DNA of 63,143 nt, filler included, from Reclinomonas americana ATCC 50394 (Eukaryota): the NCBI GenBank assembly GCA_048213135.1. It is 11 parts of 7 records of this genome, joined end to end, with 100 filler letters (N's around TTAATTAATTAA, not from the genome) between each part and the next. Parts side by side here need not be neighbours in the genome. Positions count along the whole stretch, not along the records: positions 13,853 to 19,749 come from PS015781.1; positions 19,850 to 27,938 come from PS015782.1; positions 28,039 to 34,705 come from PS015783.1; positions 34,806 to 39,712 come from PS015784.1; positions 39,813 to 42,986 come from PS015784.1; positions 43,087 to 47,877 come from PS015784.1; 5 more parts are not named here. One strand, 5' to 3'. Position 1 is the first letter of the stretch; each line of letters opens with the position of its first letter. The position numbers were made by a program, and so were the translations under genes. Under the pieces are notes generated by a model. The model saw nothing but the letters and a program-made list of their open reading frames with translations, made no database searches and was not told where the DNA came from. Below are positions 14,142 to 51,171 of this stretch, one piece after another.

Positions 14142-14603
14142 TGTTGCGTTGTTTGTTGTTTGTTCAAGCTTGTCTTCTCTCCGACAGTTGCAAAGTATCA
14201 AAATAAGCGTTGAAGAGTGGCACTACACATTCTTCACCCGCAAACACGAAGAACACACACGCGTGCTGATGAACTGCGGCATCGAATCGCAACACTCACT
14301 CACTGCCTTTGCAACCAACTCAATCGCATCTTCGGTTTTNNNNNNNNNNNNNNNNNNNNNNNNNNNNNNNNNNNNNNNNNNNNNNNNNNNNNNNNNNNNN
14401 NNNNNNNNNNNNNNNNNNNNNNNNNNNNNNNNNNNNNNNNNNNNNNNNNNNNNNNNNNNNNNNNNNNNNNNNNNNNNNNNNNNNNNNNNNNACCGTCCAC
14501 TGCAATCGACCTGCCGAACCGTTACAATTTTACATTCGCTTTGACTTGTCTCTGTGAGCACCTGCAACCCCCTTTTTTCTTCTTCAAAACCTTCAAAACA
14601 AAC

Positions 14604-15248
14604 ATGGACCACTGGAAGGAGACGCCCTCTGTCCGCGTGAACGCCGCTGGTAAGTCACACAAAAAACACACACACACACTCCCTCTGCAATGTCCGATTG
14701 TGACAACTGACTCCTTCTCCTCCCCGCGCTCCTCTCCCACTCTCCTTTCCTCTCCTCCTTGTTATGTGTGTCTTCCTCTCTCTTCATTGGTAGGCGGCAC
14801 AGGCGGCCGCTCGCAACTCGGCGACATTCTGGGAGGAGGCCCCGATGCCGTGGATGATCGCTTTGCGGGCTACCGCCGAGCTCCGCCCGCTGCCTCCCAG
14901 GCGGCCGCAGCCCCCGCTGCCCCGGCCCCCGCCAAGCAGTCGGCAAACGCACCCTCGGCTCAGGCGGTGAGTTGCCGTTGTCCATGTTGATGTTGCACCA
15001 TTCTTTTTTTCCCGTTACGATGCTAAACTCAACACCCGTTACTCTTTCTTTTGCAGGAGTCTCGCATGAGCAACGTCGCACCCGTGTACTCGAGTGAGGG
15101 CAGTGGCTCCACTGTGCGTGGCACAAGTACCCGAGTCGCCCAGCCGCCGGGTGCGTTCCTTCTCATTTTTCATGTCCTATTCTTGCATGCATGTTTTCAC
15201 TCATGACTTGGTGTTGCAGGTGGCCGCTCGTCTGGCCCGTTGTGGTAA
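14604..15248 (+). CDS. Small Jupiter/HN1/SPIRAL1-like microtubule-associated protein
   Basis: 4 exons with GT-AG introns give two related motifs, PSVRVNAAGGTGGRSQLG and TSTRVAQPPGGRSSGPLW*, matching the PPGGxSS motif of these families. Confidence 0.65.
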
Positions 15249-15501
15249 AACCCCCCCGCCCTCCTTTGTGTGTGTACAGTAACGCTGCGAATGACGGAAA
15301 AAAAGACTTATCTTTGTGTTTAGTTTTGTTTTACTCTCGAATGTGTGTGTGTGTGTGTGCTGTGTTTGCGTCTCGAGTCCACCACGTGGTTTCGTTTACA
15401 ACGTGTGTGTGCGCGTTCATGAATGTGGGGAGTGGGTAGATTAAAACAAGCAAGAGAAAAGAATGTGGGGTGTTTCTTTATCTTCATTCTCTTCCGCTTC
15501 A

Positions 15502-18324: not shown

Positions 18325-18355
<31 letters not shown>

Positions 18356-18596
18356 GTGCGTGTGTAGCTGACGCACTGGCAAGCACCGCCTCGATCACAC
18401 GACGTTGCATGGGGCGAAACGAAGTCAACTTGAAGTGTCGTCGAAGTGCCACCTCCATATCATCATCTCCACCGACTGGTGTTGGCTTGGGTGCGCCTCG
18501 GCGTCGAATGCCTTCCTCTGCCTCTTCCTCTTCGTCTTCCTCCTCTCCAGAGTCCACCTGCACCACCTCTACTACCTTGCCTCCCCTCTCACTCAT
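15502..18596 (-). CDS. RecQ-family DNA helicase (RecQ5-like layout)
   Basis: SFRPMQ, LLPTGAGKSLCYQ, YTTPE, IDEAHCV|SEWGHDFRP, ATIAFGMGVNKQDVRFVIH, FYQESGRAGRDG and RQC zinc motif CRR...YF...CQNCDAC; 9 introns. Confidence 0.95.
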
Positions 18597-18649
18597 TGAA
18601 TAGAAGAAGCACAAAGNNNNNNNNNNNNNNNNNNNNTAACAAAAATTCA

Positions 18650-19093
18650 TTATTCCTTCTTCGCCTCGAGGACCGACAGTCGCTCCAGCACCTGACGCAA
18701 GAGGTGCTGCTGGTCGGCGAGTTGTGCCACCAGCTGCTGCTGCTCGGCCAATTGACGAGCCTGCTCGGCGAGCTGTTGGCGCTGCACTTCGACCTCGTCG
18801 CGGTACTGCTCAATCTGCTCCTGCTGCTGCTTGACGGCCTCCACGAGGACCGCCGTCAGGCGCGCGTAGTCTACCGTCTTCAGCTCCTTGCCCTGCGCCC
18901 ACAGTGGTCGGACGAGATCCGGGAACATCTGCTCCACGTCTTGCGCGAGAAGACCGACTTCGCGTCGCGTGGTCTGCTTGCCGAGCCGCACCGCAGCCTC
19001 GTCGTTCCACAAGTACGACACGCCGCGGAGGCTCTGGATCGCTTTCAGCGCGTTGTCCAGCGGTTGAATATCCCGCTTGAGCCGTGCGTCTGA
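18650..19093 (-). other. Peptidase S74 / endosialidase-type intramolecular chaperone domain plus coiled coil
   Basis: Ser codon at 19091-19093 and Lys codon at 19076-19078 form the SDxRxK autocleavage dyad; downstream GxxAQ and VDY motifs are intact. Confidence 0.9.
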
Positions 19094-22000
19094 CATGGGG
19101 TTTGTCACGATCTCGTACGTCACGCCGCCCGCCGAGTTCCACATGGGCTGCGCAAATGCATCAGCACAAAACTGCACAAACCCAACTAAACACAAGCACG
19201 ACTCGACTCACCATGCCATCGACCGTGCTGGAATTGTTTGCGGCATACAGCTGACTGTACGAGCCGGTACCGGCGGGATCCAGCGTCGGGCCAGCTGGCA
19301 CGTACTTGATCTGTGTGAGAGAGGTATTGGTGAGTAACTTTACAGGAGATAGGGAGAGAGTGACAGGTTCCAACGCAAACAAACCTCGACAACACCGGCA
19401 GCTGCCGCAATGTAACTCGAGAAGGTGGCCTTGCCGCCCACCGTCAGCGTATTGGTGCCGGAGATAGAAACTGTGCCGTTCAGAGTAATGGCGCCACCGA
19501 CACTCAGCGCGCCAGTCACAGTCGCCGCCCCGCCGACGCTCAGCGCACCAGCCGCGCCTGCACCACTCAGTGTCACGGCATTGGCAAATGTTGACGTGCC
19601 AGCAACCGACAGCGTAGACGACAGTGACGCAGCACCCGTGACGGCAAGTGTGCCGCCGAGAGAGGTGGCGCCGGACTGCACGGTAAACGTGTTCAGGTTT
19701 TGCACCGTCACCGCCCCGTTCAGGTTGATGGCGGCACCGCCCACCGATANNNNNNNNNNNNNNNNNNNNNNNNNNNNNNNNNNNNNNNNNNNNTTAATTA
19801 ATTAANNNNNNNNNNNNNNNNNNNNNNNNNNNNNNNNNNNNNNNNNNNNGGCCAGCGCTCAGTGTTGCCAGACCCGCCACCGAAAGCGTGCCGCCCAGTG
19901 TCGTCGCATTCGCACCAGACACCGTCAGCGTTCCCGTTGTCGTCACGTTGCCAGTCAGCGTCGAGGTGCCACCGACCGACAGCGACGACGTCAGGGTTGC
20001 CGCACCAGTCACTCCGAGTGTGCCGCCAAGACTCGTCGTGCCAGTCGACACCGTGAATGTTGCACCACTCACCGTCGTCGCTCCCGTCAGTGACGTCGCA
20101 CCGGCCGCCGTCAACCCACCGGTCACCGATGCACCGCCGTTCAGCGACGCCAGACCGCCAGCCACAGTGAACGTGTTGGTTCCCACCACCACAGTCGCAC
20201 CATTCAGGTTCGATCCGGCATTCACCGTCAGCAGACCAGCCAGCGTCGTCGCTCCCGTCACACCCAGTGTGCCACCGAGTGTCACCGGCGCCGCACCCAC
20301 AACAAGCGATCCCGTCGCGTTGATGCTCAGCGCCGCATCAAATGTCGCCGCACCCTTCACCGACAGCGTCGATGCGAGTGTCGTTGCACCAGCCACACTC
20401 AACGCACCGCCAAGCGTCGTCAGGCCAGTGCCCACTGTCAGCGTGTTTGCGCCAGTCACCGACACGTTACCGTTCAGCGTCGCAAGTCCACCAACCGTCA
20501 GAGTCGACGACAGCGTCGTCGCCAGCGTCACATCTAGCGTCCCCAGCAGTGTCGTCGCTCCGTTGTTGACCGACAGTGGCTGACCAGCAGCAATCGTCAG
20601 ACCGGCCGCAAACGTCGCCAGTCCAGTGACCGACAGCGTGCCGCCCACCGATGTGTTGGATCCCACAGTCAGCGTCTTTGTCGCCGCAATCGTCACATTG
20701 TTGTTGAACTGCGTCGTGCCATTCACCGTCAGCACATTCGTCACCGTCGCACTACCGCTGACCGCCACATCGCCAGCAAACGACGACAAGCCAGTACCCT
20801 GCACCACAAGCACACCAGGCGACTGAATCGTCAGCGTGTTCGTCAGTGACAGGCCATTCAACGTCGTCACGCCGGCCACAGTCAGTGAGCCGCCGAGCGT
20901 TGTTGCACCGACTCCCACCGTCAGTGTGCCGTTGCCGAGGAACGCCAGATTGCCGGTGAGATCGAGACCGCCACCCAGTGTAGCCTTGCCAGTCAGCGTA
21001 CTCGTGCCATTGATCGACAGAGTGCCGGTCGGCACAGACAGTGAACCGCCCACCGTCGTGTTGCCAGTCAGCGTCGACGTGCCGCCCACAGACAGCGACG
21101 ACGACAGCGTGGTGGCGCCAGTGACCGCCAAAGTGCCACCCAGCGTCGTGGCGCCAGTACCCACGGTAAACGTCGACGTGCCGCCCACGGCAGTCGCGCC
21201 ATTGAACTGCGATGCACCACTCACCGTCACCGTCGACAGCGATGTCGTGCCACCCAGCACATTCAGCGACGCGTTCAACGTCGTCGCACCCGTCACCGTC
21301 AGCGTGCTACCCGCCGACACAGCGCCCGTCAGCACTGACCCGCCAGTCACCGTCAGCAGCTGGCCCACCGTAGCGTTGCCGCCCACCGACAGGTTGTTGG
21401 TGCCGCCGACAGTCAGCGCACCGCCCGACACAGTCATGCCACCATTGGCAGTCACCGCACCAGTGATGGTCGTGGCGCCAGTGATGTCCACAGTGCCGCC
21501 GAAAGAGCTCGGTCCAGTGCCCATGGTGAACACATTGCCGTTCGCAATCGTCAAGTTGCCATTCAGCGTCAACGACGACAGCGTCAGGCCGCCAGAGAAT
21601 GTGGTCGCACCACCCACCGACAGTGAGCCGGAAAGCGCCGTCGCACCGGCACTCACCGTCAGACCACCAGTCGCCACCGTCAGCGCGTTCATTGTCGATG
21701 GACCAGCAGCGGACAGACCGCCGCTAAACGTCGCCAGACCCGCCACCGACAGCGTGCCGCCTAGTGTCGTCGCATTCGCACCAGACACCGTCAGCGTTCC
21801 CGTTGTCGTCACGTTGCCAGTCAGCGTCGAGGTGCCGCCGACCGACAGCGATGACGTCAGGGTTGCCGCACCAGTCACTCCGAGTGTGCCGCCAAGACTC
21901 GTCGTGCCAGTCGACACCGTGAATGTTGCACCACTCACCGTCGTCGCTCCCGTCAGTGACGTCGCACCGGCCGCCGTCAACCCACCAGTCACCGATGCAC

Positions 22001-25000
22001 CGCCGTTCAGCGACGCCAGACCGCCAGCCACAGTGAACGTGTTGGTTCCCACCACCACAGTCGCACCATTCAGGTTCGATCCGGCATTCACCGTCAGCAG
22101 ACCAGCCAGCGTCGTCGCTCCCGTCACACCCAGTGTGCCACCAAGTGTCACCGGAGCCGCACCCACAACCAGCGATCCCGTCGCGTTGATGCTCAGCGCC
22201 GCATCAAACGTCGCCGCACCCTTCACCGACAGCGTCGATGCGAGTGTCGTTGCACCAGCCACACTCAACGCACCGCCAAGCGTCGTCAGACCAGTGCCCA
22301 CTGTCAGCGTGTTTGCGCCAGTCACCGACACGTTACCGTTCAGCGTCGCAAGCCCGCCAACCGTCAGAGTCGACGACAGCGTCGTCGCCAGCGTCACATC
22401 CAGCGTCCCCAGCAGTGTCGTCGCTCCGTTGTTGACCGACAGTGGCTGACCAGCAGCAATCGTCAGACCGGCCGCAAACGTCGCCAGTCCAGTGACCGAC
22501 AGCGTGCCGCCCACCGATGTGTTGGATCCCACAGTCAGCGTCTTTGTCGCCGCAATCGTCACATTGNNNNNNNNNNNNNNNNNNNNNNNNNNNNNNNNNN
22601 NNNNNNNNNNNNNNNNNNNNNNNNNNNNNNNNNNNNNNNNNNNNNNNNNNNNNNNNNNNNNNNNNNNNNNNNNNNNNNNNNNNNNNNNNNNNNNNNNNNN
22701 NNNNNNNNNNNNNNNNNNNNNNNNNNNNNNNNNNNNNNNNNNNNNNNNNNNNNNNNNNNNNNNNNNNNNNNNNNNNNNNNNNNNNNNNNNNNNNNNNNNN
22801 NNNNNNNNNNNNNNNNNNNNNNNNNNNNNNGACCGGCCGCAAACGTCGCCAGTCCAGTGACCGACAGCGTGCCGCCCACCGATGTGTTGGATCCCACAGT
22901 CAGCGTCTTTGTCGCCGCAATCGTCACATTGTTGTTGAACTGCGTCGTGCCATTCACCGTCAGCACATTCGTCACCGTCGCACTACCGCTGACCGCCACA
23001 TCGCCAGCAAACGACGACAAGCCAGTACCCTGCACCACAAGCACACCAGGCGACTGAATCGTCAGCGTGTTCGTCAGTGACAACCCATTCAACGTCGTCA
23101 CGCCGGCCACAGTCAGTGAGCCGCCGAGCGTTGTTGCACCGACTCCCACCGTCAGTGTGCCGTTGCCGAGGAACGCCAGATTGCCGGTGAGATCAAGACC
23201 ACCGCCCAGTGTAGCCTTGCCAGTCAGCGTACTCGTGCCATTGATCGACAGAGTGCCGGTCGGCACAGACAGTGAGCCACCCACCGTCGTGTTGCCAGTC
23301 AGCGTCGACGTGCCACCTACAGACAGCGACGACGACAGCGTGGTCGCGCCAGTGACCGCCAAAGTGCCACCCAGCGTCGTGGCGCCAGTACCCACGGTAA
23401 ACGTCGACGTGCCGCCCACGGCAGTCGCGCCATTGAACTGCGATGCACCACTCACCGTCACCGTCGACAGCGATGTCGTGCCACCCAGCACATTCAGCGA
23501 CGCGTTCAACGTCGTCGCACCCGTCACCGTCAGCGTGCTACCCGCCGACACAGCGCCCGTCAGCACCGACCCGCCAGTCACCGTCAGCAGCTGGCCCACC
23601 GTAGCGTTGCCGCCCACCGACAGGTTGTTGGTGCCGCCGACAGTCAGCGCACCGCCCGACACAGTCATGCCACCATTGGCAGTCACCGCACCGGTGATGG
23701 TCGTGGCGCCAGTGATGTCCACAGTGCCGCCGAAAGAGCTCGGTCCGGTGCCCATGGTGAACACATTGCCATTCGCAATCGTCAAGTTGCCATTCAGCGT
23801 CAACGATGACAGCGTCAGGCCGCCAGAGAACGTGGTCGCACCACCCACCGACAGTGAGCCGGAAAGCGCCGTCGCACCGGCACTCACCGTCAGACCACCA
23901 GTCGCCACCGTCAGCGCGTTCATTGTCGACGGACCAGCAGCGGACAGACCGCCGCTAAACGTCGCCAGACCCGCCACCGACAGCGTGCCGCCCAGTGTCG
24001 TCGCATTCGCACCAGACACCGTCAGCGTTCCCGTTGTCGTCACGTTGCCAGTCAGCGTCGAGGTGCCACCGACCGAAAGCGATGACGTCAGGGTCGCCGC
24101 ACCAGTCACTCCGAGTGTGCCGCCAAGACTCGTCGTGCCAGTCGACACCGTGAATGTTGCACCACTCACCGTCGTCGCTCCCGTCAGTGACGTCGCACCG
24201 GCCACAGTCAATCCACCGGTCACCGATGCACCGCCGTTCAGCGACGCCAGACCGCCAGCCACAGTAAACGTGTTGGTTCCCACCACCACAGTCGCACCAT
24301 TCAGGTTCGATCCGGCATTCACCGTCAGCAGACCAGCCAGCGTCGTCGCTCCCGTCACACCCAGTGTGCCACCAAGTGTCACCGGCGCCGCACCCACAAC
24401 CAGCGATCCCGTCGCGTTGATGCTCAGCGCCGCATCAAACGTCGCCGCACCCTTCACCGACAGCGTCGATGCGAGTGTCGTTGCACCAGCCACACTCAAT
24501 GCGCCGCCAAGCGTCGTCAGACCAGTGCCCACCGTCAGCGTGTTTGCACCAGTCACCGACACGTTACCGTTCAGCGTCGCAAGTCCACCAACCGTCAGCG
24601 TCGACGACAGCGTCGTCGCCAGCGTCACATCCAGCGTCCCCAGCAGTGTCGTCGCTCCATTGTTGACCGACAGTGGCTGACCAGCAGCAATCGTCANNNN
24701 NNNNNNNNNNNNNNNNNNNNNNNNNNNNNNNNNNNNNNNNNNNNNNNNNNNNNNNNNNNNNNNNNNNNNNNNNNNNNNNNNNNNNNNNNNNNNNNNNNNN
24801 NNNNNNNNNNNNNNNNNNNNNNNNNNNNNNNNNNNNNNNNNNNNNNNNNNNNNNNNNNNNNNNNNNNNNNNNNNNNNNNNNNNNNNNNNNNNNNNNNNNN
24901 NNNNNNNNNNNNNNNNNNNNNNNNNNNNNNNNNNNNNNNNNNNNNNNNNNNNNNNNNNNNNNNNNNNNNNNGGCCGGCCGCAAACGTCGCCAGTCCAGTG

Positions 25001-28000
25001 ACCGACAGCGTGCCGCCCACCGACGTGTTGGATCCCACAGTCAGCGTCTTTGTCGCCGCAATCGTCACATTGTTGTTGAACTGCGTCGTGCCATTCACCG
25101 TCAGCACATTCGTCACCGTCGCACTACCGCTGACCGCCACATCGCCAGCAAACGACGACAAGCCAGTACCCTGCACCACAAGCACACCAGGCGACTGAAT
25201 TGTCAGCGTGTTCGTCAGTGACAACCCATTCAACGTCGTCACGCCGGCCACAGTCAGCGAGCCGCCGAGCGTTGTTGCACCGACTCCCACCGTCAGTGTG
25301 CCGTTACCGAGGAACGCCAGATTGCCGGTGAGATCAAGACCGCCACCCAGTGTAGCCTTGCCAGTCAGCGTACTCGTGCCATTGATCGACAGAGTGCCAG
25401 TCGGCACAGACAGTGAGCCGCCAACCGTCGTGTTGCCAGTCAGCGTCGACGTGCCGCCCACAGACAGCGACGACGACAGCGTGGTCGCGCCAGTGACCGC
25501 CAAAGTGCCACCCAGCGTCGTGGCGCCAGTACCCACGGTAAACGTCGACGTGCCGCCCACGGCAGTCGCGCCATTGAACTGCGATGCACCACTCACCGTC
25601 ACCGTCGACAGCGATGTCGTGCCACCCAGCACATTCAGCGACGCGTTCAACGTCGTCGCACCCGTCACCGTAAGCGTGCTACCCGCCGACACAGCGCCCG
25701 TCAGCACCGACCCGCCAGTCACCGTCAGCAGCTGGCCCACCGTAGCGTTGCCGCCCACCGACAGGTTGTTGGTGCCGCCGACAGTCAGCGCACCGCCCGA
25801 CACAGTCATGCCACCATTGGCAGTCACCGCACCGGTGATGGTCGTGGCGCCAGTGATGTCCACAGTGCCGCCGAAAGTGCTCGGTCCATTGCCCATGGTG
25901 AACACATTGCCATTCGCAATCGTCAAGTTGCCATTCAGCGTCAACGACGACAGCGTCAGGCCGCCAGAGAACGTGGTCGCACCACCCACCGACAGCGAGC
26001 CAGAGAGCGCCGTCGCACCGGCCGTCACCGTCAGACCACCAGTCGCCACCGTCAGTGCGTTCATTGTCGACGGACCAGCAGCAGACAGACCGCCGCTAAA
26101 CGTCGCCAGACCCGCCACCGACAGCGTGCCGCCCAGTGTCGTCGCATTCGCACCAGACACCGTCAGCGTTCCCGTTGTCGTCACGTTGCCAGTCAGCGTC
26201 GAGGTGCCACCGACCGAAAGCGATGACGTCAGGGTCGCCGCACCAGTCACGCCGAGTGTGCCGCCAAGACTCGTCGTGCCAGTCGACACCGTGAATGTTG
26301 CACCACTCACCGTCGTCGCTCCCGTCAGCGACGTCGCACCGGCCACAGTCAACCCACCGGTCACCGATGCACCGCCGTTCAGCGACGCCAGACCGCCAGC
26401 CACAGTAAACGTGTTGGTTCCCACCACCACAGTCGCACCATTCAGGTTCGATCCGGCATTCACCGTCAGCAGACCAGCCAGCGTCGTCGCTCCAGTCACA
26501 CCCAGTGTGCCACCGAGTGTCACCGGCGCCGCACCCACAACCAGCGATCCCGTCGCGTTGATGCTCAGCGCCGCATCAAACGTCGCCGCACCCTTCACCG
26601 ACAGAGTCGATGCGAGTGTCGTTGCACCAGCCACACTCAACGCGCCACCCAACGTCGTCAAACCAGTGCCCACCGTTAGTGAACTCGTACCAGTCACCGA
26701 CACATTACCGTTCAGCGTCGCAAGTCCGCCAACAGTCAGAGTCGACGACAGCGTCGTCGCCAGCGTCACATCTAGCGTACCCAGCAGTGTCGTCGCTCCG
26801 TTGTTGACCGACAGTGGCTGACCAGCAGCAATCGTCAGACCGGCCGCAAACGTCGCCAGTCCAGTGACCGACAGCGTGCCGCCCACCGATNNNNNNNNNN
26901 NNNNNNNNNNACGAACACGTTCACAGTAGGAGCTGGTCCGACTGTGCTCGGCGGTACGCTGAGTGTGGCTGGAGTGGCCACATTTGCTGGTGGCATGACA
27001 CTGGCTGGTCTGACCCTGAATGGCAATCTGGTCATCAACAATGGCTTCTCGCTGAGCATGGGCACTGGGCCGAGTACGTTTGCCGGAACAGTGAGCGTGA
27101 CCGGGGCCACCACTCTCACCGGCTTGCTGACTGCAAATGGTGGAGCTGTGGTTACTGGCGGCGCACTGGCGATCAACGGTGGCAACAATCTCACCGTGTC
27201 GGGCAACTCAACGCTGACGGGCTCGCTCTCGGTCGGCGGTGCCGTCACATTTGCCAACAATGTGCAGATTTCCGGTCCTAGTTCACTGACCGTTGGTGGC
27301 GCGGGCACTATTACTGGTGTCCTGTCGGTGGGTGGCACGTCCACACTGACGGGCGATGTTACCATTGCCGGTGCGACTACCATGGACAAGAGTCTGACGT
27401 TGGTTGGTGCCTCTTCCAACCTGTCAGTGGGAGCCGGCACCACAACGTTGGGTGGCACTTTGGCGGTCACTGGCGCGACCACGCTGTCGTCGTCGCTGTC
27501 TGTGGGTGGCACGTCGACTCTGACTGGCAACACGACGGTTGGCGGCTCACTGTCTGTGCCGACTGGCACTCTGTCGATCAATGGCACGAGTACGCTGACT
27601 GGCAAGGCTACACTGGGCGGTGGTCTTGATCTCAGTGGCAATCTGGCGTTCCTCGGTAACGGCACGCTGACGGTGAACGCTGGCGCCACGACGCTCGGCG
27701 GCTCACTGACTGTGGCCGGTGTGACGACGTTGAATGGGTTGTCACTGACGAACACGTTGACGATTCAGTCGCCTGGTGTGCTGGTGGTGCAGGGTACTGG
27801 CTTGTCGTCGTTTGCTGGCGATGTGGCGGTCAGCGGTAGTGCGACGGTGACGAATGTGCTGACGGTGAATGGCACGACGCAGTTCAACAACAATGTGACG
27901 ATTGCGGCGACAAAGACGCTGACTGTGGGATCCAACACNNNNNNNNNNNNNNNNNNNNNNNNNNNNNNNNNNNNNNNNNNNNTTAATTAATTAANNNNNN

Positions 28001-37000: not shown

Positions 37001-40000
37001 TCCCGCCAAGAGTCGTGGCACCGCCAACCACCTGCAAGGTGGCCACGCCAGCCACCACCACCGCCCCCTGGAAGGTGCTCGTCGAGGTTGCCGTCACTGC
37101 GCCATTCAGCGTGGTGACGCCAGTCACCGACAAGGTGCCACCAAGGACCGAGGCTCCGTTGGTGACGGTGAAGGGACCGGCACCGGCTGCCAGTGTTACC
37201 GGACCGGCAAAGGTGCTCGTGCCCCCGGCACTGAGTGCGCCCACCAGCGACGTCGTGCCAGTGACATTCAAGGTGCCGGTGAGCGTCGTGGCACCGCCGC
37301 CGACCACACTCAGTGTCCCCGGCGCATTGATGGTGACCGTGGATGCAAAGGCAGCAGCACCGGAGACTACAAGCGAACCGCCCAGCGAAGTGGCACCAGT
37401 GCCGACAGTCACTGTGCGGCCATTCGGCACCGACACCGCACCATCCAGTGTCACAGCTCCGCCGCCCACCGAGAGACCGCCAGCGAGCGTAGCAGCGCCC
37501 GTGACGGCCAGCGACCCAGCAAACGACGAAGCACCAGTGCCGACAACAAATGGCTGCATATCGGCAATGGTCACTGAGGCGTTGAAGCGGGCCGCGCCAG
37601 CCGCCGTCATGGCACCCGTCAGTGTCGTCACTCCCGCCACTGTCATGGCACCGCCGTGTGTGACGGCGCCAGTGCCGGTGGAGAATGTCGACGAGCCCAG
37701 AACAGCCACGTTGCCATTGAACGAGGTAGCGCCCGACACTGTGAGCGCACTCAACGTGGTGGCGCCAGTGACGGACAGAGTGCCGCCAAACACCGCGGCA
37801 GTCATGGTATCGAGCGTCAGCGTCTGCATGTTGGTGACGAGGACCGATCCGGTAAATGTCGACGCGCCGTTCGCGGTGAACGCACCGCCGAGCACCGTGG
37901 CACCCGTGTCCACCATCAGCTTCTTGCCATTCGTCACCAGGGTGTCGCCCGAGAAGGTGGAGGCACCGGCCACTGCCAGCGTGCCGCCGAGAATCGAAGC
38001 AATGCCCGTGTCGACCGTCAGCGACGTGCCACCGCTGACACGCGCGCCGCCGCCAAGCGTGGCGAGGCCACCGACGAGCAGCGTTGACGACAGCGAGGCA
38101 GCACCCGTGGCACTGAGAGTGCCACCGAGAGAGGTGGCGCCAGTGCCGACCGTCAGCGCGTTGGTGCCGAGAACTTGCAGAGCGCCACCAGAGACCGTCA
38201 GACCGCCGGCGGTCGACGCTGCACCGGTAAAGGTCGACGCGCCGTTCACCGACAGGGTACCGGTCAGCGAGGTGGCGCCACCACTCACCGTCAGCGCGTT
38301 GTTGTTGGCCACGGTCAGCGTACCATTGAACACGCTGGCGCCAGTGACCGCCACTGCGCCATTGAGGGTGGAGGCTCCAGTCACTGTTACACCGCCACCC
38401 AGAGAGGTGAGGCCAGTGGCGACCGACAGCGTCGAAGACGCACCGGTCACCAGCACACTGTTTGAAAATGTGCTTGCGCCGCTGACAGACAGCGTGCCAG
38501 CCATTGTCGTATTCGACGTNNNNNNNNNNNNNNNNNNNNNNNNNNNNNNNNNNNNNNNNNNNNNNNNNNNNNNNNNNNNNNNNNNNNNNNNNNNNNNNNN
38601 NNNNNNNNNNNNNNNNNNNNNNNNNNNNNNNNNNNNNNNNNNNNNNNNNNNNNNNNNNNNNNNNNNNNNNNNNNNNNNNNNNNNNNNNNNNNNNNNNNNN
38701 NNNNNNNNNNNNNNNNNNNNNNNNNNNNNNNNNNNNNNNNNNNNNNNNNNNNNNNNNNNNNNNNNNNNNNNNNNNNNNNNNNNNNNNNNNNNNNNNNNNN
38801 NNNNNNNNNNNNNNNNNNNNNNNNNNNNNNNNNNNNNNNNNNNNNNNNNNNNNNNNNNNNNNNNNNNNNNNNNNNNNNNNNNNNNNNNNNNNNNNNNNNN
38901 NNNNNNNNNNNNNNNNNNNNNNNNNNNNNNNNNNNNNNNNNNNNNNNNNNNNNNNNNNNNNNNNNNNNNNNNNNNNNNNNNNNNNNNNNNNNNNNNNNNN
39001 NNNNNNNNNNNNNNNNNNNNNNNNNNNNNNNNNNNNNNNNNNNNNNNNNNNNNNNNNNNNNNNNNNNNNNNNNNNNNNNNNNNNNNNNNNNNNNNNNNNN
39101 NNNNNNNNNNNNNNNNNNNNNNNNNNNNNNNNNNNNNNNNNNNNNNNNNNNNNNNNNNNNNNNNNNNNNNNNNNNNNNNNNNNNNNNNNNNNNNNNNNNN
39201 NNNNNNNNNNNNNNNNNNNNNNNNNNNNNNNNNNNNNNNNNNNNGGTGGCAATGTGGCCATCACGGGCACGAACACGCTGACTGTGGGCACGGGCGCCAC
39301 CGTGTTGGGTGGCACGCTCAGTGTCGCAGGCGCAACCGCCGTCTCGGGCACATTTAGTGCCGGCGGTGCAACATCAACATTCGACAGCGCCGTGAGCGTC
39401 GTCAACGGCAAGTCGTTTGCGGTGGTGTCGGGTGCCAGCACGTTGGGCGGCACGCTGAATGTGACCGGCACGGCCACGTTTGCGGGTGCCGTGTCGGTCG
39501 CCGGCGGCCAATTGTTCAGTGTGGGTGCCTCAACACCAAGCACTCTTGGTGGTTCGTTGTCGGTGGCCGGTCTGTCGACATTTGCCGGTGGCCTGCAAGT
39601 CACTGGTGGCACGGTGACCTCGTCGGCCGACCTGACGCTGTCGGGCACGAGCAAGCTGACGACTGGCACCGGTCTCGTCACCTTTGGCGGCGACGTGTTG
39701 CACAGCAACAGCNNNNNNNNNNNNNNNNNNNNNNNNNNNNNNNNNNNNNNNNNNNNTTAATTAATTAANNNNNNNNNNNNNNNNNNNNNNNNNNNNNNNN
39801 NNNNNNNNNNNNAAAAGACGCGCCAGCCTGGCCCGTGATGAGCGCCACGAATGTGGAGGCTCCGGTAACACTGAGAGTGGAACCGAGAGAGGTGGCGCCA
39901 GACACCACTTGCAGTGTGCGCGCTGAATCGATGACTACGTTACCGCTCAGTGTGGTGGAGCCACCAACAGAGAGAGCACCCGTGATGGTGGTGGCACCGC

Positions 40001-43000
40001 CCACCGCCAACGAACCGCCGAGAGTCGTTGCTCCCGTGCCCACCGTAAGCGAAGTGGTATTGCCGGAGACCACAACATTGCCGGCAAAGGTCGACGTACC
40101 ACCGACACTGAGTGAGCCGCCAAAGAGCGACGGGCCGGCGGCCACTGACAGCGCCGTGGTCGCACCGACAACCACCACATTGGCGGAAAACGTCGAAACG
40201 CCAGCAGCATTCAACGGACCGCCCAGTGTGGTGGCTCCAGTGCCGACCGTAAATGTACGTGTGCCGGAGACAGACACATCGTTGTTGAACAGCGACGTAC
40301 CGCCCACGGTGAGCGTACCACCCAAGTTGGTGGCGCCACTGGTGACAGTCAGCGTACCACCCAGGGTGGTGGCTCCGGTGCCGACTGTCAGCGGTCTTCC
40401 GGCGGCCAGCGACACTGGACCATCAAACACACTGGCGTTGTTGGCCGACAGCGCCCCAGTCAACGTCGTGGTGCCGGTCACCGACAGNNNNNNNNNNNNN
40501 NNNNNNNNNNNNNNNNNNNNNNNNNNNNNNNNNNNNNNNNNNNNNNNNNNNNNNNNNNNNNNNNNNNNNNNNNNNNNNNNNNNNNNNNNNNNNNNNNNNN
40601 NNNNNNNNNNNNNNNNNNNNNNNNNNNNNNNNNNNNNNNNNNNNNNNNNNNNNNNNNNNNNNNNNNNNNNNNNNNNNNNNNNNNNNNNNNNNNNNNNNNN
40701 NNNNNNNNNNNNNNNNNNNNNNNNNNNNNNNNNNNNNNNNNNNNNNNNNNNNNNNNNNNNNNNNNNNNNNNNNNNNNNNNNNNNNNNNNNNNNNNNNNNN
40801 NNNNNNNNNNNNNNNNNNNNNNNNNNNNNNNNNNNNNNNNNNNNNNNNNNNNNNNNNNNNNNNNNNNNNNNNNNNNNNNNNNNNNNNNNNNNNNNNNNNN
40901 NNNNNNNNNNNNNNNNNNNNNNNNNNNNNNNNNNNNNNNNNNNNNNNNNNNNNNNNNNNNNNNNNNNNNNNNNNNNNNNNNNNNNNNNNNNNNNNNNNNN
41001 NNNNNNNNNNNNNNNNNNNNNNNNNNNNNNNNNNNNNNNNNNNNNNNNNNNNNNNNNNNNNNNNNNNNNNNNNNNNNNNNNNNNNNNNNNNNNNNNNNNN
41101 NNNNNNNNNNNNNNNNNNNNNNNNNNNNNNNNNNNNNNNNNNNNNNNNNNNNNNNNNNNNNNNNNNNNNNNNNNNNNNNNNNNNNNNNNNNNNNNNNNNN
41201 NNNNNNNNAGTGCCGCCAAGAGTCGTTGCACCGCCAACCACAGTCAGCGTGTTTGTACCGCTGACAGTCACCGCCGACGTAAACGTGCTGCCGCCGGCCG
41301 CCGTCAACGGCCCACTGAGCGTGGTGATGCCGGTGACACCCAAAGTGCCACCAATCAGCGTGGCTGCTGTTCCGGTGGTCACTGTGCCGTTGAGGAGGGT
41401 GGCACCGCTGACCGTCAGAGCACCCGCAGCTTGCACGGATCCAGTAAACGTGGAGGCCCCGGTTACCGACAGCGTGCCTCCGAGAGAGGTGGCACCGGTG
41501 CCGACCGTGAAGGTGCCCGTGCCGCCAACAGAAGTCGGGCCGTTAAAGGTGGCCGCATTGGCGGCGTTGGTGGACACGATGCCGCCGGTGACGGTCAGCA
41601 GCGCATTCACGTTGGTGGCGCCGCCGAGAGTCGTGGCGCCCGTGGTCACCGTAAAGGTGCGCGCATTGACCACGGAGACGTTGCCGTCAAAGGTGCTGAC
41701 GCCACTGACGGACACGGTGCCAGAGGCGGTGAGGGCGCCGCCGACCGCCAGAGTGCCAGTGAGGTTGGTGGCGTCGAGAGAGACCACAAGCGTGTTGCCT
41801 GTGCCAATGATGCTGACGTTGCCGTTCAGCGTGGTCACGCCAGCCACCGACAGACCGCCAGAGATCGAGCTGGTTCCACCAGACACCGTCAGTGGGCTCA
41901 TCGCGGAGGTGATGACCACTGGCGACGTGAACGTGGAGGCACCCGACACCGTCACTCCGCCTTGCAGAGTGGTGGCGGCAGACACCAGCAGTGTGCCACC
42001 CAGAGCCGTGGCTCCAGTGCCGACAGTGAATGTCTTGGCACCGGTGATGGAGACGTTGCCAGAGAAGGTGGAGGCGCCGCCCACAATCAGCTGCCCGCCG
42101 AGTGTCGTGTCACCGGCAGCCACTGAAAATGTGTTGTTGCCAAGGACCGATGTGGCACCGCCAAATGTGGCGCCACCACTGGCGGTGAGAAGGCGATCAA
42201 AGGTGACAAGGCCACCGACGGAGAGTGCCGAGGTGGCGCCGACAATAGAGACGCTGTTGGTGAAGCGCGAAATACCGGCCACCGACAGCGCTCCGCCAAG
42301 GGTGGTGACACCGGCGCCGACAGTGAAATCCGTGGTGGCACCGGCCAGAACCACATCGTCGTTGAAAGTCGACACGCCGGCCACGGTGAGGGAGCCACCG
42401 AGAGATGTGGGTCCGTTCATGGACATGCCCACCGAGCCCGAAAAGTAAAACGTGCCTCGCACCGTCAGATCACCAGTTACCGTGGTGGAGGTGGCGGAGA
42501 GCGTCAGTGGAGCCGCCGCAAGTCCAATCGACACGCTGGTGGTGGTGGCCAAGGCAAACGAGTTGCCGCCGACTGTGGCTGCGAAACGGCTCGTTGCATC
42601 GAGTCCAATCTGCGGGGGGGAAGCACACGTGAGCATTCGAAGAGAAACGAATAAAAAGGACAATGGCTCTCTCACACCTCTGGTGCAGCAAAGTTCAGTT
42701 GGTTCTTGGTGTTGGTGGAGCCAGAGGCGCCCATGGTCATGCTAATGTTGCCAATGGTGCTGTTGCGCTTCACGCCAACAGTGCCCGCCTGCGTATCCAT
42801 GCGAATCTCACTGGTCTCCGTGGACGGAGAAGCGGCGGCCGCGCTCAGCAGAATCAGGTCGCGCGACGACACGCTGGTCGACTGCGCCTTCACAGTGGCC
42901 GACTGCATCATGTTGGTGCCGTCGGCCGAAATGTCAATCGTCTTGGTGGCGCGCACCAAGTGATTGTCCGACGTGGCCGTGATGTTNNNNNNNNNNNNNN

Positions 43001-46000
43001 NNNNNNNNNNNNNNNNNNNNNNNNNNNNNNTTAATTAATTAANNNNNNNNNNNNNNNNNNNNNNNNNNNNNNNNNNNNNNNNNNNNGAAGTCACCACCGC
43101 TGACCGCCGCCTGCAGCACCGTGGTGCCGGAGGTGCGGCGCACGGAAAAGTCCTGAAGAGGAAAACACGAAATGAGGGTCACCAACAACGAAAAAAAGAG
43201 TTGTGCAGCCCCCGGTCGACGACAACTGACCGTGGTGGTGATGCTGTGCGCGCCAGTCAAGGCAGTCGTGAACGACTGACCAAATGCAGTGAGCGTGGTT
43301 CCAGAGGAACCTCCGCCAGCCGCCTGACCCAGCTGCAAGCTGCCGTTGGCGTTGCCGAGCACCAGAGTCAGCGGCGAGTGAGTGTGTGTGGTTCCCAGGA
43401 AGTTGGCGGTGGTGGCGGTGAACGACACGGTGGTGGCCGCCAGCTCCGTGGTGGTACTCGACAACTTGGTGTAGGGACCAGTGAGACTGAGAGAGGGTGC
43501 GAGGGCCGAGCCGGGCACAGTGGCGGTGAGGACCAAGGTGGACGAAAACACCGACACCGCAGAGCCGCCACTGCTGCCAATGGTGATGCTGCCGGTTTGC
43601 GCCGCCGTGGTGCCCAGTTGCATGTCGGAAGCGTTCACTGTGAACCGTGTGGTTGATGCACCGCCCACGAGCACCGTAGGTCCTGAAACGGTCACCTGAC
43701 TGGCGGTGCCTGTGCCCAGATCCACCTGCATGCTACCGGCGGCAAAAATGCCTGTGCCGTCGTTGACTTGCAACCGACCAGTGACGGTGGTCGTCGGCTG
43801 GATCGAAAGCAGCACGCTGGAGCCGCCAGCGCCGGTGGACGTGAATGTGACCTGCTTGGCGTAGCCAGTGATCGAGTCCATCTGCCCACCCGTCGATGGC
43901 TGCATGAGAATGGTTGACGCCGCCTGCAACTGCAAGTCCTGCGTCTTCAAGCGAATCGCCTGCGCCGAGGCCACCGGTGTCTGCAGAAGCAGCAACGAAG
44001 TCGCCGGATTGCCGCCCGTCCCATCGCCACCCACAGTTACCGTACTGCCCATCAGTGCCATGGAACCGCTGATGGAGGACGTGAGGCTGGTGCCGAGAAC
44101 CGTCACCGCCGTCGAAGCCTGGCCGAGCCGCAGAATCGACGACGGCGTGGCCAGCAGTTGCGTTGGTACCAATGTAACCGACGCACCCGACAATGTGGCA
44201 CTCCCCGACGCCGCTGACACCGTCAGCGACAGTGTGCCGGCGGTCAGCGAGAATGAGGTGGCGGTGATCACGTCAAACACCGGCAATTTGAACGTCGACG
44301 ACACCGTGGTGCTCGAGGCCTCCACAGCAAAGTTGCGCGCGTACAAATTGACCAGTGGGGTCGACTGACCGAGCGTGATGGTCGACGTGGTGGTGGTGCC
44401 GAGATTGAGGGTCGACTGCGCATTCAGGCTAATGATACCGCCGGCCGCCGACGCGTCCACAGTGACCTGGACAACAAAAAGTGAGCAGGGGGACATGATT
44501 CTCCACACAAGCAAACAAACACACACCTGTGTGGCCTTTAGCGACATGTTGCGATTGACGCCGGTGGTATTCATGTCAATCATCACCGCCTGCGTCTCGT
44601 CGTACAGCTGAATACGCTGCGGAGTCATGGTGATGGTGGCGGGTGTGGCTGAGTTGCCTTGCAACAAACTGATACTCGAAGTGCCGCTGCCCGACGTGGT
44701 GCTCTGCACCACCACTGCCAGCGCCTTGACAGCCAAGCTCTTCGTCTGCGTGCTGCTGTTGCCGGCAATGGTGACCGAGTTTGTGCCGTACAGGCTCATG
44801 TCGAATGTCGAGGCCACCAACGTGTTGCTGGCGCTGTTGGCGGCCGTGGACAACGACATGGTTGCTGTATTGGCGACCGTGCCAAGAGTCACAGTGGCAG
44901 CGTCGAATGACATGGCGCCCTGTCATATGTGTGAGAGTGTGTGTGTGTGTGCATGTGAGGCGTCGCCAAGGTGAGAGCACGGTGGGGGGGGGGAATGAAA
45001 TCACGAACCGACACGGCACCGGTAAACTGCTGGCCGTTCACGCTGACCACGGTGCCCGGCAGAGTGGCCGTGCCCAGCGTGAGCAACGTGGACGGCTCCA
45101 TGCGCAGCGTGGTCGGTGTAAACGTGTATGCGGCACCCGTGAATGTCGCAGACGGGCTGTGCGCGGTAAAAAAAAAACACAAAACACGATTTGAATACAA
45201 GCAACCAAACAAGAGCGCGGGCGTGAACAACAAGAAAAAAACACGAATGCGCAACGTGCTAAGTGCGTACGACGTGCTGGCCGACGTGGTGATTGTGGTC
45301 GATACCACACTCAGCAACGGCAGCGTCAGTACGTTTGTCGTCGTCGTACTCGAAGCCGTGAGAGCAATGGAGCCTGCCGCCGCCGTCAAGCTGGCCACAC
45401 CAGAGTTGCCGATGGCGATGGTGGAGGTGAGTGTGGACGTCACACCAATCTGGATGGCGCTACCGTCAATCACAACACCCGAGCGTCCATAGTGCCGAAT
45501 CTACAATTGATGCACAACGCGATTCCGTGAGCAGCGCAAAAAGAGTGGCAGGCAACCGGTGCGATGTGGGGGAAAATGACGCACCCGCAGGCACTCGGCG
45601 TACATCGGCGACGACGCGTTGTTATCGAGGCGCAGCTCGCACACCGAGGAGGAGCCGCGGTACAGACGAATGGTACCGGGTGTACCAGACAGTGTCGAGG
45701 CCACCAACTGCAGGCCGGCCTGATCGGTACCGGTGCCTGAGGCCGCCGTCAGTGACACTGAGGACTCGAGATCCAGTGCGCCGGAGAATACATTGACCAG
45801 TGGCGAAGGAGTCGCCAGAGTGCCAAGGTCAAACCGACTCGTGGCGGTGACGCTAACAGCCGCCGACGAGAGCGAAATGGATGTGCTCGACACTGCGCGA
45901 GTACACACAGCAACCATTGAACAAACAAACATCAAATGAACAAAAAACAGAGAGAAGCACACGACGTACGTTGCGAAATGGTCGACGTGACGGTTGGTGC

Positions 46001-47877
46001 CGAGGATCCAATGAGCACGCTCGGCGACGTGAGAATCGCCGACGTGCCATAGCGACCCGTGTAGGCCACCGCTTGCTGCGTCATGGACGTAGTCGACGAA
46101 TCGCCCAACACCATTGCTCCAGAGGGGATGGCCGTGAACGACGAGACGTTCCACGAGTAGCTGCCGCCAGTGTACGACGCCGACGTGGTGCTCGACTGCG
46201 TCAACACTGGCGCAGTGACCGACGTCGTGTCGGTCACCACACTCAACGACGGCGTCGTCAATGTGGTCGCACCGGCGCCGCCAATGGTGCCGATAAACAC
46301 GTTCAGATTCACAGAGCGCATGCGAATCGTGTTCAGCACGGTCGATGACGTGGGGTTGCCGAGCGTCAGCAACGTGGCAGCCGACGAGCCAAGCGAAAGC
46401 GTACCCGTCGTGTCCACCGCAACCGACGTCAGCGCCGCCAGGGTCGCCTGTAATCAAACGGGGGGAAACAAAGCAGACAGAGTGAGCGCGCGCCCCATCG
46501 GGTCTGCGCGGTCACGAGAAACAACACGCACCTGGCTGTTGAGGGCAATGTCGCCGAGAGTGAGGATGCCGTGTGCATTTCCGCTGGAACCCTGACCTGC
46601 CATGATGATCAGAGGCGCACCGACTCCCGGCGACGTTCGGGACGGACGCCGGATCGTCAACGACGCATTCAGATCGTCGTGCAACTGCATGACATTCGAT
46701 GCGCCACGGAAGCTGATGACGGCCGTGGACTGCATGTCGACGTTGCCAGAGAATGTGGTAGTCGCGACATTCACCAACATGGTGCCAGTGGAGCGACCGA
46801 TTTGCACCTGACTGGAGGCGTTGACGCCCAAGAACAGATTGCCGTGGGTGCTGCCACCCTGACCAGCATCAATGGTTCTGCTCAGGCAAACACAACAATG
46901 GTGAGGGAAGACGAGAAGGAAAGATGTACGGTGCAAGACAAACGCAACAAGTCTCCACCAATGCCGGTGGCCGAGTTCTGTCCGCGAATGGTCGTCGCCG
47001 AGCCGGTGGCACTGCCAGCAAGCGGTGTGCGCTCCATGATGAACGCCTTGTTGGAGGAACCGAGTCGCAGAGTGGCTGACGACAGGGAGGCGTTGCGCCC
47101 TGCGTTTTTTCAAGTGCGTGTGTGTATGCACGTGGTTAGTACGTAGCACTTATTACGAAGAACAAATGCGCATTGTGGGCAAACCTGGATCAAGTGTCAG
47201 CGTCCCGTCGACATTGATTGCCATGGCGCCCGACGACGCCTGCAGCGTGGACAGCTCCAGCGCACCCGTCAGCGTGGTGGCGCCATTGACTTGTAGCGAG
47301 CCGGCTAGAGTCGTGGCGCCCGCCACCGACAGCTGCTCACGATGGAAAACCAACGCATATGAGTCATGCGCACATCTGTGCAACACGATGAATGCAGACG
47401 CACCGCCGACTGAATTGTGGTGGTCGTGCCAGTGGCACCAATGGCCACGCCTGACGATGCCAGACCGAGTTCGAGGGCCTGCGTGCATCATGCCACAGTA
47501 AGCAAGCACATCAATACACACCGCGAGCGCCGTGCCATACAACGAGCAAAAGAACGCAACTGCGCCCACGGGATTGAGCTGCATGATGGATGTGCTCTGC
47601 AGCCGCATGCCCGACGAGCCAGTCAGATTGAACTGACCGGTGCTAGTAAACGTCGTTGTCGAATCTGCCGTCAGCGACACGACTCCGCCTTCGAGCGTCA
47701 GCTGTGCGGGTGGTGCATGAGTACCATGTACGTGTCATACAGAAATCTCGGCAAGGCAAGAAACAACATACCAATCCACGAGTGGACGACACGGGGCCGG
47801 TGGACAGTGTGAGCGCGCCGCCAGTAATGGCACCACTGTTGTTGAATTGTGCCGACTCCACACGGAGTTCAGGGGGC
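18650..47877 (-). CDS. Giant beta-repeat fibre-like protein with C-terminal peptidase S74 intramolecular chaperone (5' partial, gapped)
   Basis: Same-strand ORFs of G/T/V/A/S/L repeats (GATTLGGTLSVT-type) run across 19385-42609. Thirteen GT-AG introns in 42610-47771 and two at 19148-19211 and 19311-19384 preserve frame. The last exon has SDARLKRDI...GVSYLWN...GLLAQDV...FPDLV...VDYARLTAVLVEAVK plus a coiled coil. Continuity across gaps is inferred. Confidence 0.8.
19850..27938. repeat. Coding tandem repeat, 1866-bp (622-aa) unit, at least about 3.5 copies
   Basis: CGCAATCGTCACATTG ends at both 20700 and 22566 within one contig. Near-identical copies lie at 22831-24695 and 24972-26890, with a partial copy on the inverted contig near 27440-27938. 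Confidence 0.92.
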
Positions 47878-47980
47878 NNNNNNNNNNNNNNNNNNNNNNN
47901 NNNNNNNNNNNNNNNNNNNNNTTAATTAATTAANNNNNNNNNNNNNNNNNNNNNNNNNNNNNNNNNNNNNNNNNNNNCAG

Positions 47981-50900: not shown

Positions 50901-51171
50901 AGGCGCTGACATTGGAGGGATCGTGTGGTATTCAAATGTGCGTCGTCTACGTGCGGTGTTATGTATCTGTCGTCTTGAGCTGGCCCGACAGTGCGTTGCA
51001 GAACGGAGCTGTCGGCTGAGAATTCTCCTGCTGCGCTGCTGCGCACCGCACTCGGGCACACGGTCGAGGAGGTGGTGCAGAGGCGTGATGAGAGCTGCTT
51101 TGACGACGTTCTGTCGGCCAATGTGGAGTCTGAGTGGGCCATGTGGAAGCGGAGCACTGTGGAATTGGGTG
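47981..51171 (+). CDS. Multi-exon protein ending in an atypical Ras-superfamily GTPase domain (both ends in gaps)
   Basis: Spliced G1 LILIGDAR|VGKST, G3-like DTAAP, AHGLVFMFDVT, G4 VLANK|VD and G5-like TELSA. Upstream exons are helical/ARM-like then Pro/Thr-rich; their linkage to the GTPase is not fully traced. Confidence 0.7.

Follow-up and report, generated by a model that had tools for sequence, protein, structure and literature searches.

A 63,143-base stretch of the Reclinomonas americana ATCC 50394 genome (assembly GCA_048213135.1), referred to here as the window, probably encodes a homotrimeric fibre of the phage and giant-virus type in the nuclear genome of this flagellate, with spliceosomal introns and a host-like composition. 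The fibre locus lies at 18650-47877. Read from the N to the C terminus, its product would start with an irregular, Thr/Ser-rich and beta-rich orphan region of at least 1,400 residues, pass into a long array of a 45-residue super-repeat built from hexapeptide strands, and end, after a 33-residue linker exon, in a C-terminal S74 intramolecular chaperone with a helical tail. Trimeric fibres with an S74 cap count as a hallmark of phages and have been described more recently in giant viruses and polinton-like viruses (PLVs). The protein would belong to a known kind of fibre, trimeric, beta-helical and ending in S74, which occurs in phages, bacteria, giant viruses and PLVs; what is new here is that the copy is nuclear, intact and interrupted by predicted introns, that its N-terminal region is an orphan and, possibly, that its length is a record. 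In a limited search of the literature on S74 in eukaryotes and giant viruses we found no spliced cellular fibre gene described, and the only studied cellular eukaryotic use of S74 in the literature so found was the MYRF transcription factor. An intact copy with host composition would represent a second and structurally conservative domestication, one in which the fibre itself was kept and not just the cleavage module.

The S74 exon, the N-terminal-type region and their putative introns

At the C-terminal end of the locus, the open reading frame (ORF) 18653-19207 on the minus strand matches the complete Peptidase_S74 profile of Pfam (PF13884, positions 1-58 of 58) with an E-value of 1.9e-19 and 70.2 bits, the cut-off being 22. 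The terminal exon opens with 18 residues ahead of the predicted cleavage site, continues with the S74 intramolecular chaperone and closes with a tail rich in Q, E and L; it reads SDARLK...GLLAQDVE...VDY before the tail and a TAA stop codon. The Ser-Lys dyad is present, with the Lys five residues after the Ser; SDARLK falls over the cleavage motif of PDB entries 6f45 and 7dc3, the Ser and Lys align with S587 and K592 of MyRF, and the MyRF aromatic pair Y615/Y617 aligns with a Tyr and a Trp of the exon. These matches bear out the original prediction for this stretch, which had named an intact S74 end. Among the C-termini of tail-fibre PHROG families the exon has many matches, the best to phrog_5668 (E 1.2e-24), and it also matches the long tail fibre of 6f45 (E 2.6e-9) and the ICA domain of MyRF in 7dc3 (E 2e-6). 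A second S74 copy was sought in the window with tblastn and none was found.

A study of this domain equates the dyad S587/K592 of MyRF with S911/K916 of endoNF, reports that the cut falls directly before the Ser and is made by the trimer only, and describes a C-terminal coiled coil as driving trimerisation (PMC8326128). For the Reclinomonas protein a cut is predicted between Met and Ser (NPM/SDARLK), which would free a fragment of 146 amino acids; the stop codon lies 146 residues past the dyad Ser, and the final ~70 residues are rich in Q, E and L. Judged by its sequence and by what is known of the family, this tail is probably helical and trimerising.

The S74 exon is joined to repeats in a single contig (18637-19749), where repeats, two introns and S74 follow one another in unbroken physical linkage. 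The exon at 19385-19749 is the only repeat sequence that shares a contig with S74, and the link between the S74 and repeat exons, claimed at the outset, is present there across the two introns. Over this contig the open frame moves from frame 2 to frame 1 and back to frame 2, and both shifts are mended by GT-AG intervals. The two C-terminal introns were placed by hand from the three-frame view; the splice model, which was trained on repeats, over-split the S74 exon.

At the opposite end of the locus, removal of 12 predicted introns from 43087-47877 leaves an uninterrupted frame of 3,801 nt, or 1,267 codons. This N-terminal-type region is Thr/Ser-rich, contains 6.5% D+E+K+R and occurs in a single copy in the window; its frame is open at 47877, so the N terminus and the start codon are not reached. 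The passage from irregular N-terminal-type sequence to regular repeats takes place within one contig (41209-42986). Judged by its sequence, the region is an orphan with no detectable family: against 1.84 billion representative proteins, exon 43231-44466 gave one weak match (E 3.2e-6), the ORF 43087-44922 that spans this exon had no match in Pfam, exons 43231-44466 and 45961-46447 had none in PHROG or NCBIfam, and the ESM Atlas returned no named family and low recognition. A blastp search for internal repeats in the region found none, and its AF2 single-sequence model has a pLDDT of 39.4.

Splice modelling and three-frame reading place 15 putative GT-AG introns in the locus, 60-135 nt long with a median of 74, of which 13 end in CAG. 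The N-terminal-type region 43087-47877 accounts for twelve of them, a thirteenth is at 42610-42677, and the C-terminal pair occupies 19311-19384 and 19148-19211; mean GC is 0.50 in introns versus 0.63-0.64 in exons. The original prediction had also counted 15 introns, and the modelling, made independently of it, arrives at the same number with frames restored. The introns bear on the idea that this is no eukaryotic gene but a chimera of the assembly or a contig from contaminating bacteria or phage, to which we give hardly any credence. Its basis is that the S74 exon has 60 relatives (325-2,000 amino acids, all with PF13884), the best of which, at 44-49% identity, resemble bacterial proteins and carry signal peptides and NTAVG repeats. 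However, the frame is broken by introns in three different contigs, the S74 contig included, the composition matches the rest of the window, and a scan of metagenome contigs with the S74 exon returned two loci at 44% and 33% identity, neither a close nor a better-assembled relative.

The repeat shaft and its predicted fold

Between these two ends, each N-free contig of 19850-42609 is one open minus-strand frame that runs off at both ends, with two plus-strand exceptions, and stop codons, start regions and intergenic DNA are absent from all the middle contigs. The open repeat frames measure 905, 621, 639, 1316, 124, 409, 1238 and 225 amino acids, with a further 467 in 41209-42609. Over 4,560 repeat residues the composition is T 20.9, G 18.7, A 12.2, S 11.3, L 10.9 and V 10.8%, these six residues making up 85% and D+E+K+R 1.9%. 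Of the charge-poor 6/12-residue repeat in the original prediction, both periods and the scarcity of charge stand, but neither is the main period: the strongest is 45 residues, with a lag-45 identity of 0.20-0.32 versus 0.13-0.15 expected. In aligned 405-residue blocks the consensus of this super-repeat is approximately TFTVGTGATTLGGTLSVTGATTLxGxLTVxGxATFxGNVxV.

About 2,200 codons of the shaft consist of copies of a 1,866-nt (622-codon) unit that are 95-99% identical (95.5-98.1% by blastn), spread over contigs 19850-22566, 22831-24696 and 24972-26890, the second of which is exactly one unit long. A repeat search gave spacings of 1866, 2231 and 2141 in this array; Tandem Repeats Finder, run at a period of at most 500 and a score of at least 200, gave no output because the unit is 1,866 nt long. 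The contigs of 28039-34705 are diverged and have no DNA match of at least 250 nt to other contigs. The putative introns are clustered, with 13 in the N-terminal ~1,840 codons, two in the last ~200 and none seen in more than 6,000 repeat codons, and this distribution, together with 622-codon units of 95-99% identity, suggests that the shaft grew recently by tandem expansion. On the plus strand, three ORFs of 540 codons (20827-22446, 23058-24677 and 25199-26818) run antisense to the tandem unit; they have no independent support and are most likely stop-free by-products of a GC-rich repeat, not genes.

When 405 repeat residues are modelled as a monomer with AF2, the result is a solenoid of regular build in which a 3-residue strand recurs every 6 residues (pLDDT 78.5, pTM 0.69). 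A Foldseek search of the repeat model against BFVD returned 19 models at E<=1e-3; giant algal viruses and cyanophages are their sources, several bear an S74 annotation, and the TM-scores are low, at most 0.35. Three copies of a 315-residue repeat block are predicted as an intertwined trimer with a score of 0.92, the best of three controls scoring 0.00; the runs show at least 96% contact agreement and a partner pLDDT of at least 97, and the model has a pLDDT of 98. The tightest contacts between chains join residue i to i+6, which is what an intertwined triple beta-helix should give if each face is a stack of hexapeptide strands from different chains. The mark set for this score was reached by 20 of 30 microbial proteins solved as same-chain pairs and by 1 of 23 single chains, and among eukaryotic proteins by 17 of 29 same-chain pairs and 0 of 30 single chains. 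The input was our own alignment of paralogous repeat blocks, and the model may have passed because it had learned phage triple beta-helices that are already solved. A homotrimeric triple beta-helix is supported by these predictions, not shown, and the trimeric beta-helical filament that had been proposed at the outset agrees with them.

The same models bear on the alternative that the repeats form a single-chain beta-solenoid adhesin of the bactofilin or autotransporter type, with S74 only as a terminal module for trimerisation and cleavage, which we regard as improbable. The AF2 monomer does fold acceptably as a single-chain solenoid, a point against the trimer, and so is the outcome of Foldseek against the PDB, where the repeat model had no match at E<=1e-3 and its weak neighbours are single-chain beta-helices (Ag43-like 4kh3, the best at E 0.068, curli CsgA and ice-binding proteins). 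Bactofilin PF04519 is moreover found in 12 of the 120 repeat relatives listed. However, the trimer model is far more confident than the monomer, combining a pLDDT of 98 and 0.92 versus 0.00 with the i/i+6 register; the folding of trimeric fibres is an established function of S74 domains (PMC8326128); and Pfam gave no bactofilin match at E<=0.01 on the five repeat and N-terminal ORFs searched.

A model for assembly of a homotrimeric fibre would run from the C terminus. The S74 domains and the helical tail would bring three chains into register, and the trimerised end would nucleate the upstream repeats into an intertwined triple beta-helix with one six-residue strand per face per chain. Once the trimer has formed, the Ser-Lys dyad would cut each chain before the Ser of NPM/SDARLK, and the 146-residue chaperone would leave, while a very stable and nearly uncharged filament would stay. 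The identity of the domain, its dyad residues, the homology to viral and bacterial fibres and the predicted trimer are shown here; the autocleavage, the direction of folding, secretion and a cellular role we infer from what is known of the family.

Assembly joins and the number of genes

The window contains 34 runs of N, 6,722 N in total, and 10 of the 34 share one form, N44 + TTAATTAATTAA + N44, in which the dodecamer is a stop in all six frames. Stop-codon spacers serve to string separate contigs into a pseudomolecule and to block chimeric genes over the joins, as one preprint states for a similar spacer (bioRxiv 10.1101/2023.02.08.527609). The ten identical linkers therefore indicate that the window is a string of eleven scaffolds, and a feature that spans a linker, which joins separate scaffolds, is without support at that point. 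The fibre locus covers six scaffolds (Table 1), within which lie 12 more N gaps of 20 to 725 N.

We put the reading of these six scaffolds as one gene of more than 8,000 codons just short of an even chance. The pieces sum to ~8,100 codons, ~6,500 of them regular repeat, in keeping with the ~8,000 codons and unreached N terminus of the original prediction. There is a single S74 end and a single N-terminal-type region in the window, at opposite ends, and the order and orientation of the pieces fit one minus-strand gene, most contigs being on the same strand. Somewhat less likely in our view is a set of at least two paralogous S74 fibre genes, in tandem or dispersed, of which the scaffolds would be fragments and whose repeat bodies broke the assembly and whose boundaries are hidden in N gaps or linkers. 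Several genes would accord with joins made of unsupported stop-codon linkers, with demonstrable mis-orientation and tandem units that are collapsed or expanded, and with other linker joins in the window that are not collinear; with an S74 contig that is very short and ends 16 nt past the stop, as it might if near-identical 3' ends were shared; and with known relatives that reach 2,060-4,299 amino acids at most in a search range up to 5,000 residues. Nevertheless, ~29 kb holds one S74 end and one N-terminal-type region; the middle contigs lack any stop, start region or intergenic DNA; S74 and intergenic DNA, being unique, normally assemble better than repeats and hence should have appeared; and the N-type end, the repeats and the S74 end stand in the order and orientation of one gene.

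The contig at 26911-27938 is demonstrably turned the wrong way. It matches the reverse complement of the tandem unit at 94-95%, shares a 48-nt exact overlap in reverse orientation with the end of 19850-22566 and, when flipped, abuts the unit end at 26890 from its 27938 end with zero gap; the reverse-strand overlap and the gapless abutment show it to be mis-oriented. Within the tandem array, neighbouring contig ends share exact overlaps of 101 and 53 nt, which makes the N gaps 22567-22830 (264) and 24697-24971 (275) artefacts. The single giant gene of ~8,000 codons in the original prediction does not hold as it was put, since the joins are six-frame stop linkers without sequence support, and mis-scaffolding, named beforehand as telling against it, is what the contig at 26911-27938 displays.

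Several further points weigh against the fibre reading. All five linker joins among the six fibre scaffolds lack sequence support, each with its six-frame stop linker, and contig-end overlaps sought over the linkers were not found. A Rab-like gene is truncated at 58320 and its remainder is absent from the whole window, so scaffolds joined by linkers need not be collinear neighbours; a continuation of the fibre frame, open at 47877, was sought in 47978-51171 without success. The S74 contig is only 1,113 nt long and its RecQ-like neighbour is tied to it through a 20-N gap alone. In two contigs, 26911-27938 and 39245-39712, the repeat reads on the plus strand; gene boundaries could be concealed by the linkers or by N gaps of 459-725 nt; and the genome may have more or fewer copies of the 1,866-nt unit than the assembly. 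The introns are predicted from sequence features, and Pfam is blind to the repeats, with no match for any of the five repeat and N-terminal ORFs. Finally, no signal peptide, anchor or start codon is seen in the sequenced part, so location and role are guesses, an extrusome, hair or prey-capture function included.

Should the six scaffolds be one gene, its product would be the largest S74-capped protein known, would rank among the longest beta-helical proteins proposed, and would offer a natural example of a triple beta-helix of thousands of residues folded from a single C-terminal nucleus. By our geometric estimate, 6,500 residues at a rise of ~0.8 Å per residue would give a filament of ~0.5 µm. 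The fullest version, in which one domesticated viral fibre of more than 8,000 codons, with introns and a tandem 622-codon expansion, is used by the cell as a half-micrometre filament (surface hair, extrusome thread or adhesion fibre), seems to us rather unlikely. The case also illustrates how short-read assembly shreds repeat-rich giant genes, and that stop-codon linkers are breaks.

Table 1. Features of the fibre locus and of the rest of the window (positions count along the whole window)
Feature	Position	Strand	Details
Fibre locus	18650-47877		scaffolds 13853-19749, 19850-27938, 28039-34705, 34806-39712, 39813-42986, 43087-47877
Terminal exon	18653..19147	-	164 codons + TAA stop at 18653-18655
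Pfam S74 match	18908-19093	-	Ser codon 19091-19093, Lys codon 19076-19078
Putative intron	19148-19211	-	64 nt, GTGAGT...GCGCAG
Linker exon	19212-19310	-	33 codons, IKYVPAGPTLDP...TVDGM
Putative intron	19311-19384	-	74 nt, GTTTGT...CACAG
Repeat exon, GxTxL-type	19385..19749	-	121 codons, open at scaffold end
Tandem array, 1,866-nt (622-codon) unit	19850..26890	-	three contigs, 905/621/639 open codons
Mis-oriented contig	26911..27938	+	342 codons: 172 unique repeat codons, then tandem unit
Three-contig scaffold	28039..34705	-	open frames 1316/124/409 codons, N gaps 459 and 652
Repeat contig	34806..38519	-	one 1,238-codon open frame, 45-residue period
Repeat piece	39245..39712	+	156 codons, after 725-N gap; orientation/placement doubtful
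Repeat contig	39813..40487	-	one 225-codon open frame
N-type-to-repeat contig	41209..42986	-	570 codons, open both ends, 68-nt putative intron 42610-42677
N-terminal-type region	43087..47877	-	13 exons, 12 putative introns, open at both scaffold ends
RecQ-type helicase	17073-18614	-	multi-exon; DEAD E 2e-4, Helicase_C E 1.5e-9
Rab/Ras-like GTPase	57448-58320	+	GxxxxGKS and WDTGQ motifs; Pfam Ras E 7e-6; cut by scaffold end
Linkers, N44 + TTAATTAATTAA + N44	starts 8151, 13753, 19750, 27939, 34706		100 bases each
Linkers, further starts	39713, 42987, 47878, 56499, 58321

At the linker that starts at 39713, both scaffold ends leave the repeat pattern for ~8-12 codons (39813-39850 on the minus strand, 39690-39712 on the plus strand). 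The end sequences, ...STFVALITGQAGASF at 39813-39850 and ...GGDVLHSNS at 39690-39712, could be intron starts or poor contig ends.

Host gene or viral element, and relation to known fibres

GC in the fibre exons is 0.63-0.66 and GC at third codon positions (GC3) 0.70-0.84, versus 0.54-0.64 and 0.56-0.78 in the cellular ORFs of the window, taken unspliced. Pfam was run on 128 of the 129 ORFs of at least 110 amino acids outside the locus, one V-rich ORF (13855-14337, plus strand) being left out, and it returned cellular families only: ankyrin, M24 peptidase, eukaryotic porin, radial spoke head, Ras/Roc, PAS and RecQ-type helicase. No capsid, packaging ATPase, polymerase or integrase was among the ORFs so scanned, which is weak evidence because the adjacency of the scaffolds is unproven. 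The RecQ-type helicase lies directly downstream of the fibre stop codon, with 16 bases and a 20-N gap between them. The 15 introns, the host-like GC and GC3 and the cellular genes on other scaffolds together support a nuclear gene, as the original prediction had it, on the strength of sequence alone.

The search for relatives points outward to phages, bacteria and viruses, as that prediction had also suggested, and the matches comprise phage tail fibres, bacterial tail-fiber-domain proteins and a giant-virus contig. The repeat ORF 28040-31987 has 194 relatives at E<=1e-3 among 8,000 scored proteins. Among the 120 of these listed (723-2,303 amino acids), 37 carry PF13884 and 12 bactofilin PF04519; between 2,304 and 5,000 amino acids, the upper limit of the long-relative search, there are 12 more (2,380-4,299 amino acids, 28-37% identity), three of them with PF13884, including a 'tail fiber domain-containing protein' of 4,299 amino acids. 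Among phage families the repeats match phrog_36281 (E 3.7e-26) and also phrog_697, and NCBIfam gave nothing relevant, only a weak TraM match far under cut-off. The nearest viral relative lies on L003, a 355-kb viral contig of IMG/VR, whose 2,060-residue protein is 30% identical in the repeats (E 8e-33) and 28% identical in a C-terminal S74 (E 1e-10). On that contig two giant ORFs are adjacent on the plus strand, one of 1,760 amino acids without Pfam match (338-5617) and the one of 2,060 (5623-11802).

These affinities raise the possibility that the locus is an endogenous viral element, from a giant virus or a PLV, with a fibre gene for virion attachment that may be decaying; we consider this unlikely. 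S74-ended fibre proteins of up to 3.9k amino acids are reported to be ubiquitous in PLVs integrated in protist genomes (PMC12220804), and giant algal viruses are reported to pair S74 with large beta-helical domains (bioRxiv 10.64898/2026.02.06.704369; PMC10960955). With these systems counted, the naming of MYRF and MrfA as the characterised eukaryotic cases in the original prediction is incomplete. The L003 protein shares the architecture, and the BFVD matches are to giant algal viruses and cyanophages. On the other side stand the 15 spliceosomal-type introns, a GC of 0.63-0.66 and a GC3 like those of the cellular genes of the window, and frames that are all intact over ~8,100 codons, to which the lack of a viral hallmark family among the scanned ORFs adds little. 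We favour a resident, spliced nuclear gene, as its sequence features suggest.

Elsewhere in the window, radial-spoke-head-like ORFs at 11934-13055 (plus strand) match PF04712, one of them barely over the cut-off (27.1 versus 25.7 bits), and this match suggests that the host organism is flagellated. Near scaffold ends, 13853-14040 (plus strand) and 49407-49750 (minus strand) are runs of Val (and Trp) codons in low-complexity DNA of the GTG/TGG type.

The reading of the locus as a nuclear fibre gene can be set beside five groups of known proteins. With phage tail fibres and tailspikes (K1F endoNF, 6f45 of Salmonella phage S16, and the T4-like cyanophage 'baseplate wedge initiator'/S74 proteins) the Reclinomonas protein has in common a C-terminal S74 domain with an SDxRxK dyad and, probably, the helices that follow it, and the trimeric beta-helical shaft that these proteins carry just upstream of S74 is likewise predicted here. 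Unlike theirs, the gene is nuclear with 15 predicted introns, its shaft of 45-residue super-repeats is far longer, it has no virion-attachment or enzymatic domain, and its N-terminal region is an orphan. The fibres of giant viruses and PLVs, such as the L003 ORF and the S74 and large FhaB-type protein of Heterosigma akashiwo virus, follow the same plan of long beta-strand repeats and a C-terminal S74, and their carriers occur in, or infect, protists. However, those genes are intronless and lie among viral genes, whereas the Reclinomonas gene has predicted introns, host-like GC and no viral neighbours detected; its fibre may be 2-4x longer, and the laminin-G, collagen or adenovirus-fibre modules described for PLV fibres are not seen in it.

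Bacterial giants annotated as 'tail fiber domain-containing' or 'beta strand repeat-containing' are represented by Pelagibacteraceae P0185 (4,299 amino acids), whose repeats are homologous and align over 71% of the query at 29% identity. These giants come from prokaryotes and from genes without introns, and some bear PF04519 signatures that Pfam misses here. Like the Reclinomonas fibre, MYRF and Dictyostelium MrfA are products of eukaryotic nuclear genes, and their S74/ICA domain shows the Ser-Lys dyad and the aromatic pair found here. In contrast to them, the sequenced part contains no Ndt80-type DNA-binding domain or transmembrane segment (Pfam on the fibre ORFs), and S74 stands near the very C terminus after a huge repeat shaft, with ~90 residues and then the stop and no hydrophobic segment. 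The S74 domain also resembles the phage fibre (E 2.6e-9) more than it does MyRF (E 2e-6), and the Reclinomonas fibre is outside the MYRF family. The best repeat match of all is eukaryotic: JKP88DRAFT_285296 of Tribonema minus (1,925 amino acids, FN3 + repeats; E 4.1e-49, 34% identity) has the same 'TVGTGATTLGGxLxVxG' 45-residue super-repeat, which is shared by KIPB_000932 of Kipferlia bialata (Kelch + repeats). Both of these proteins lack S74 by Pfam, carry other N-terminal domains and are much shorter than the Reclinomonas fibre.

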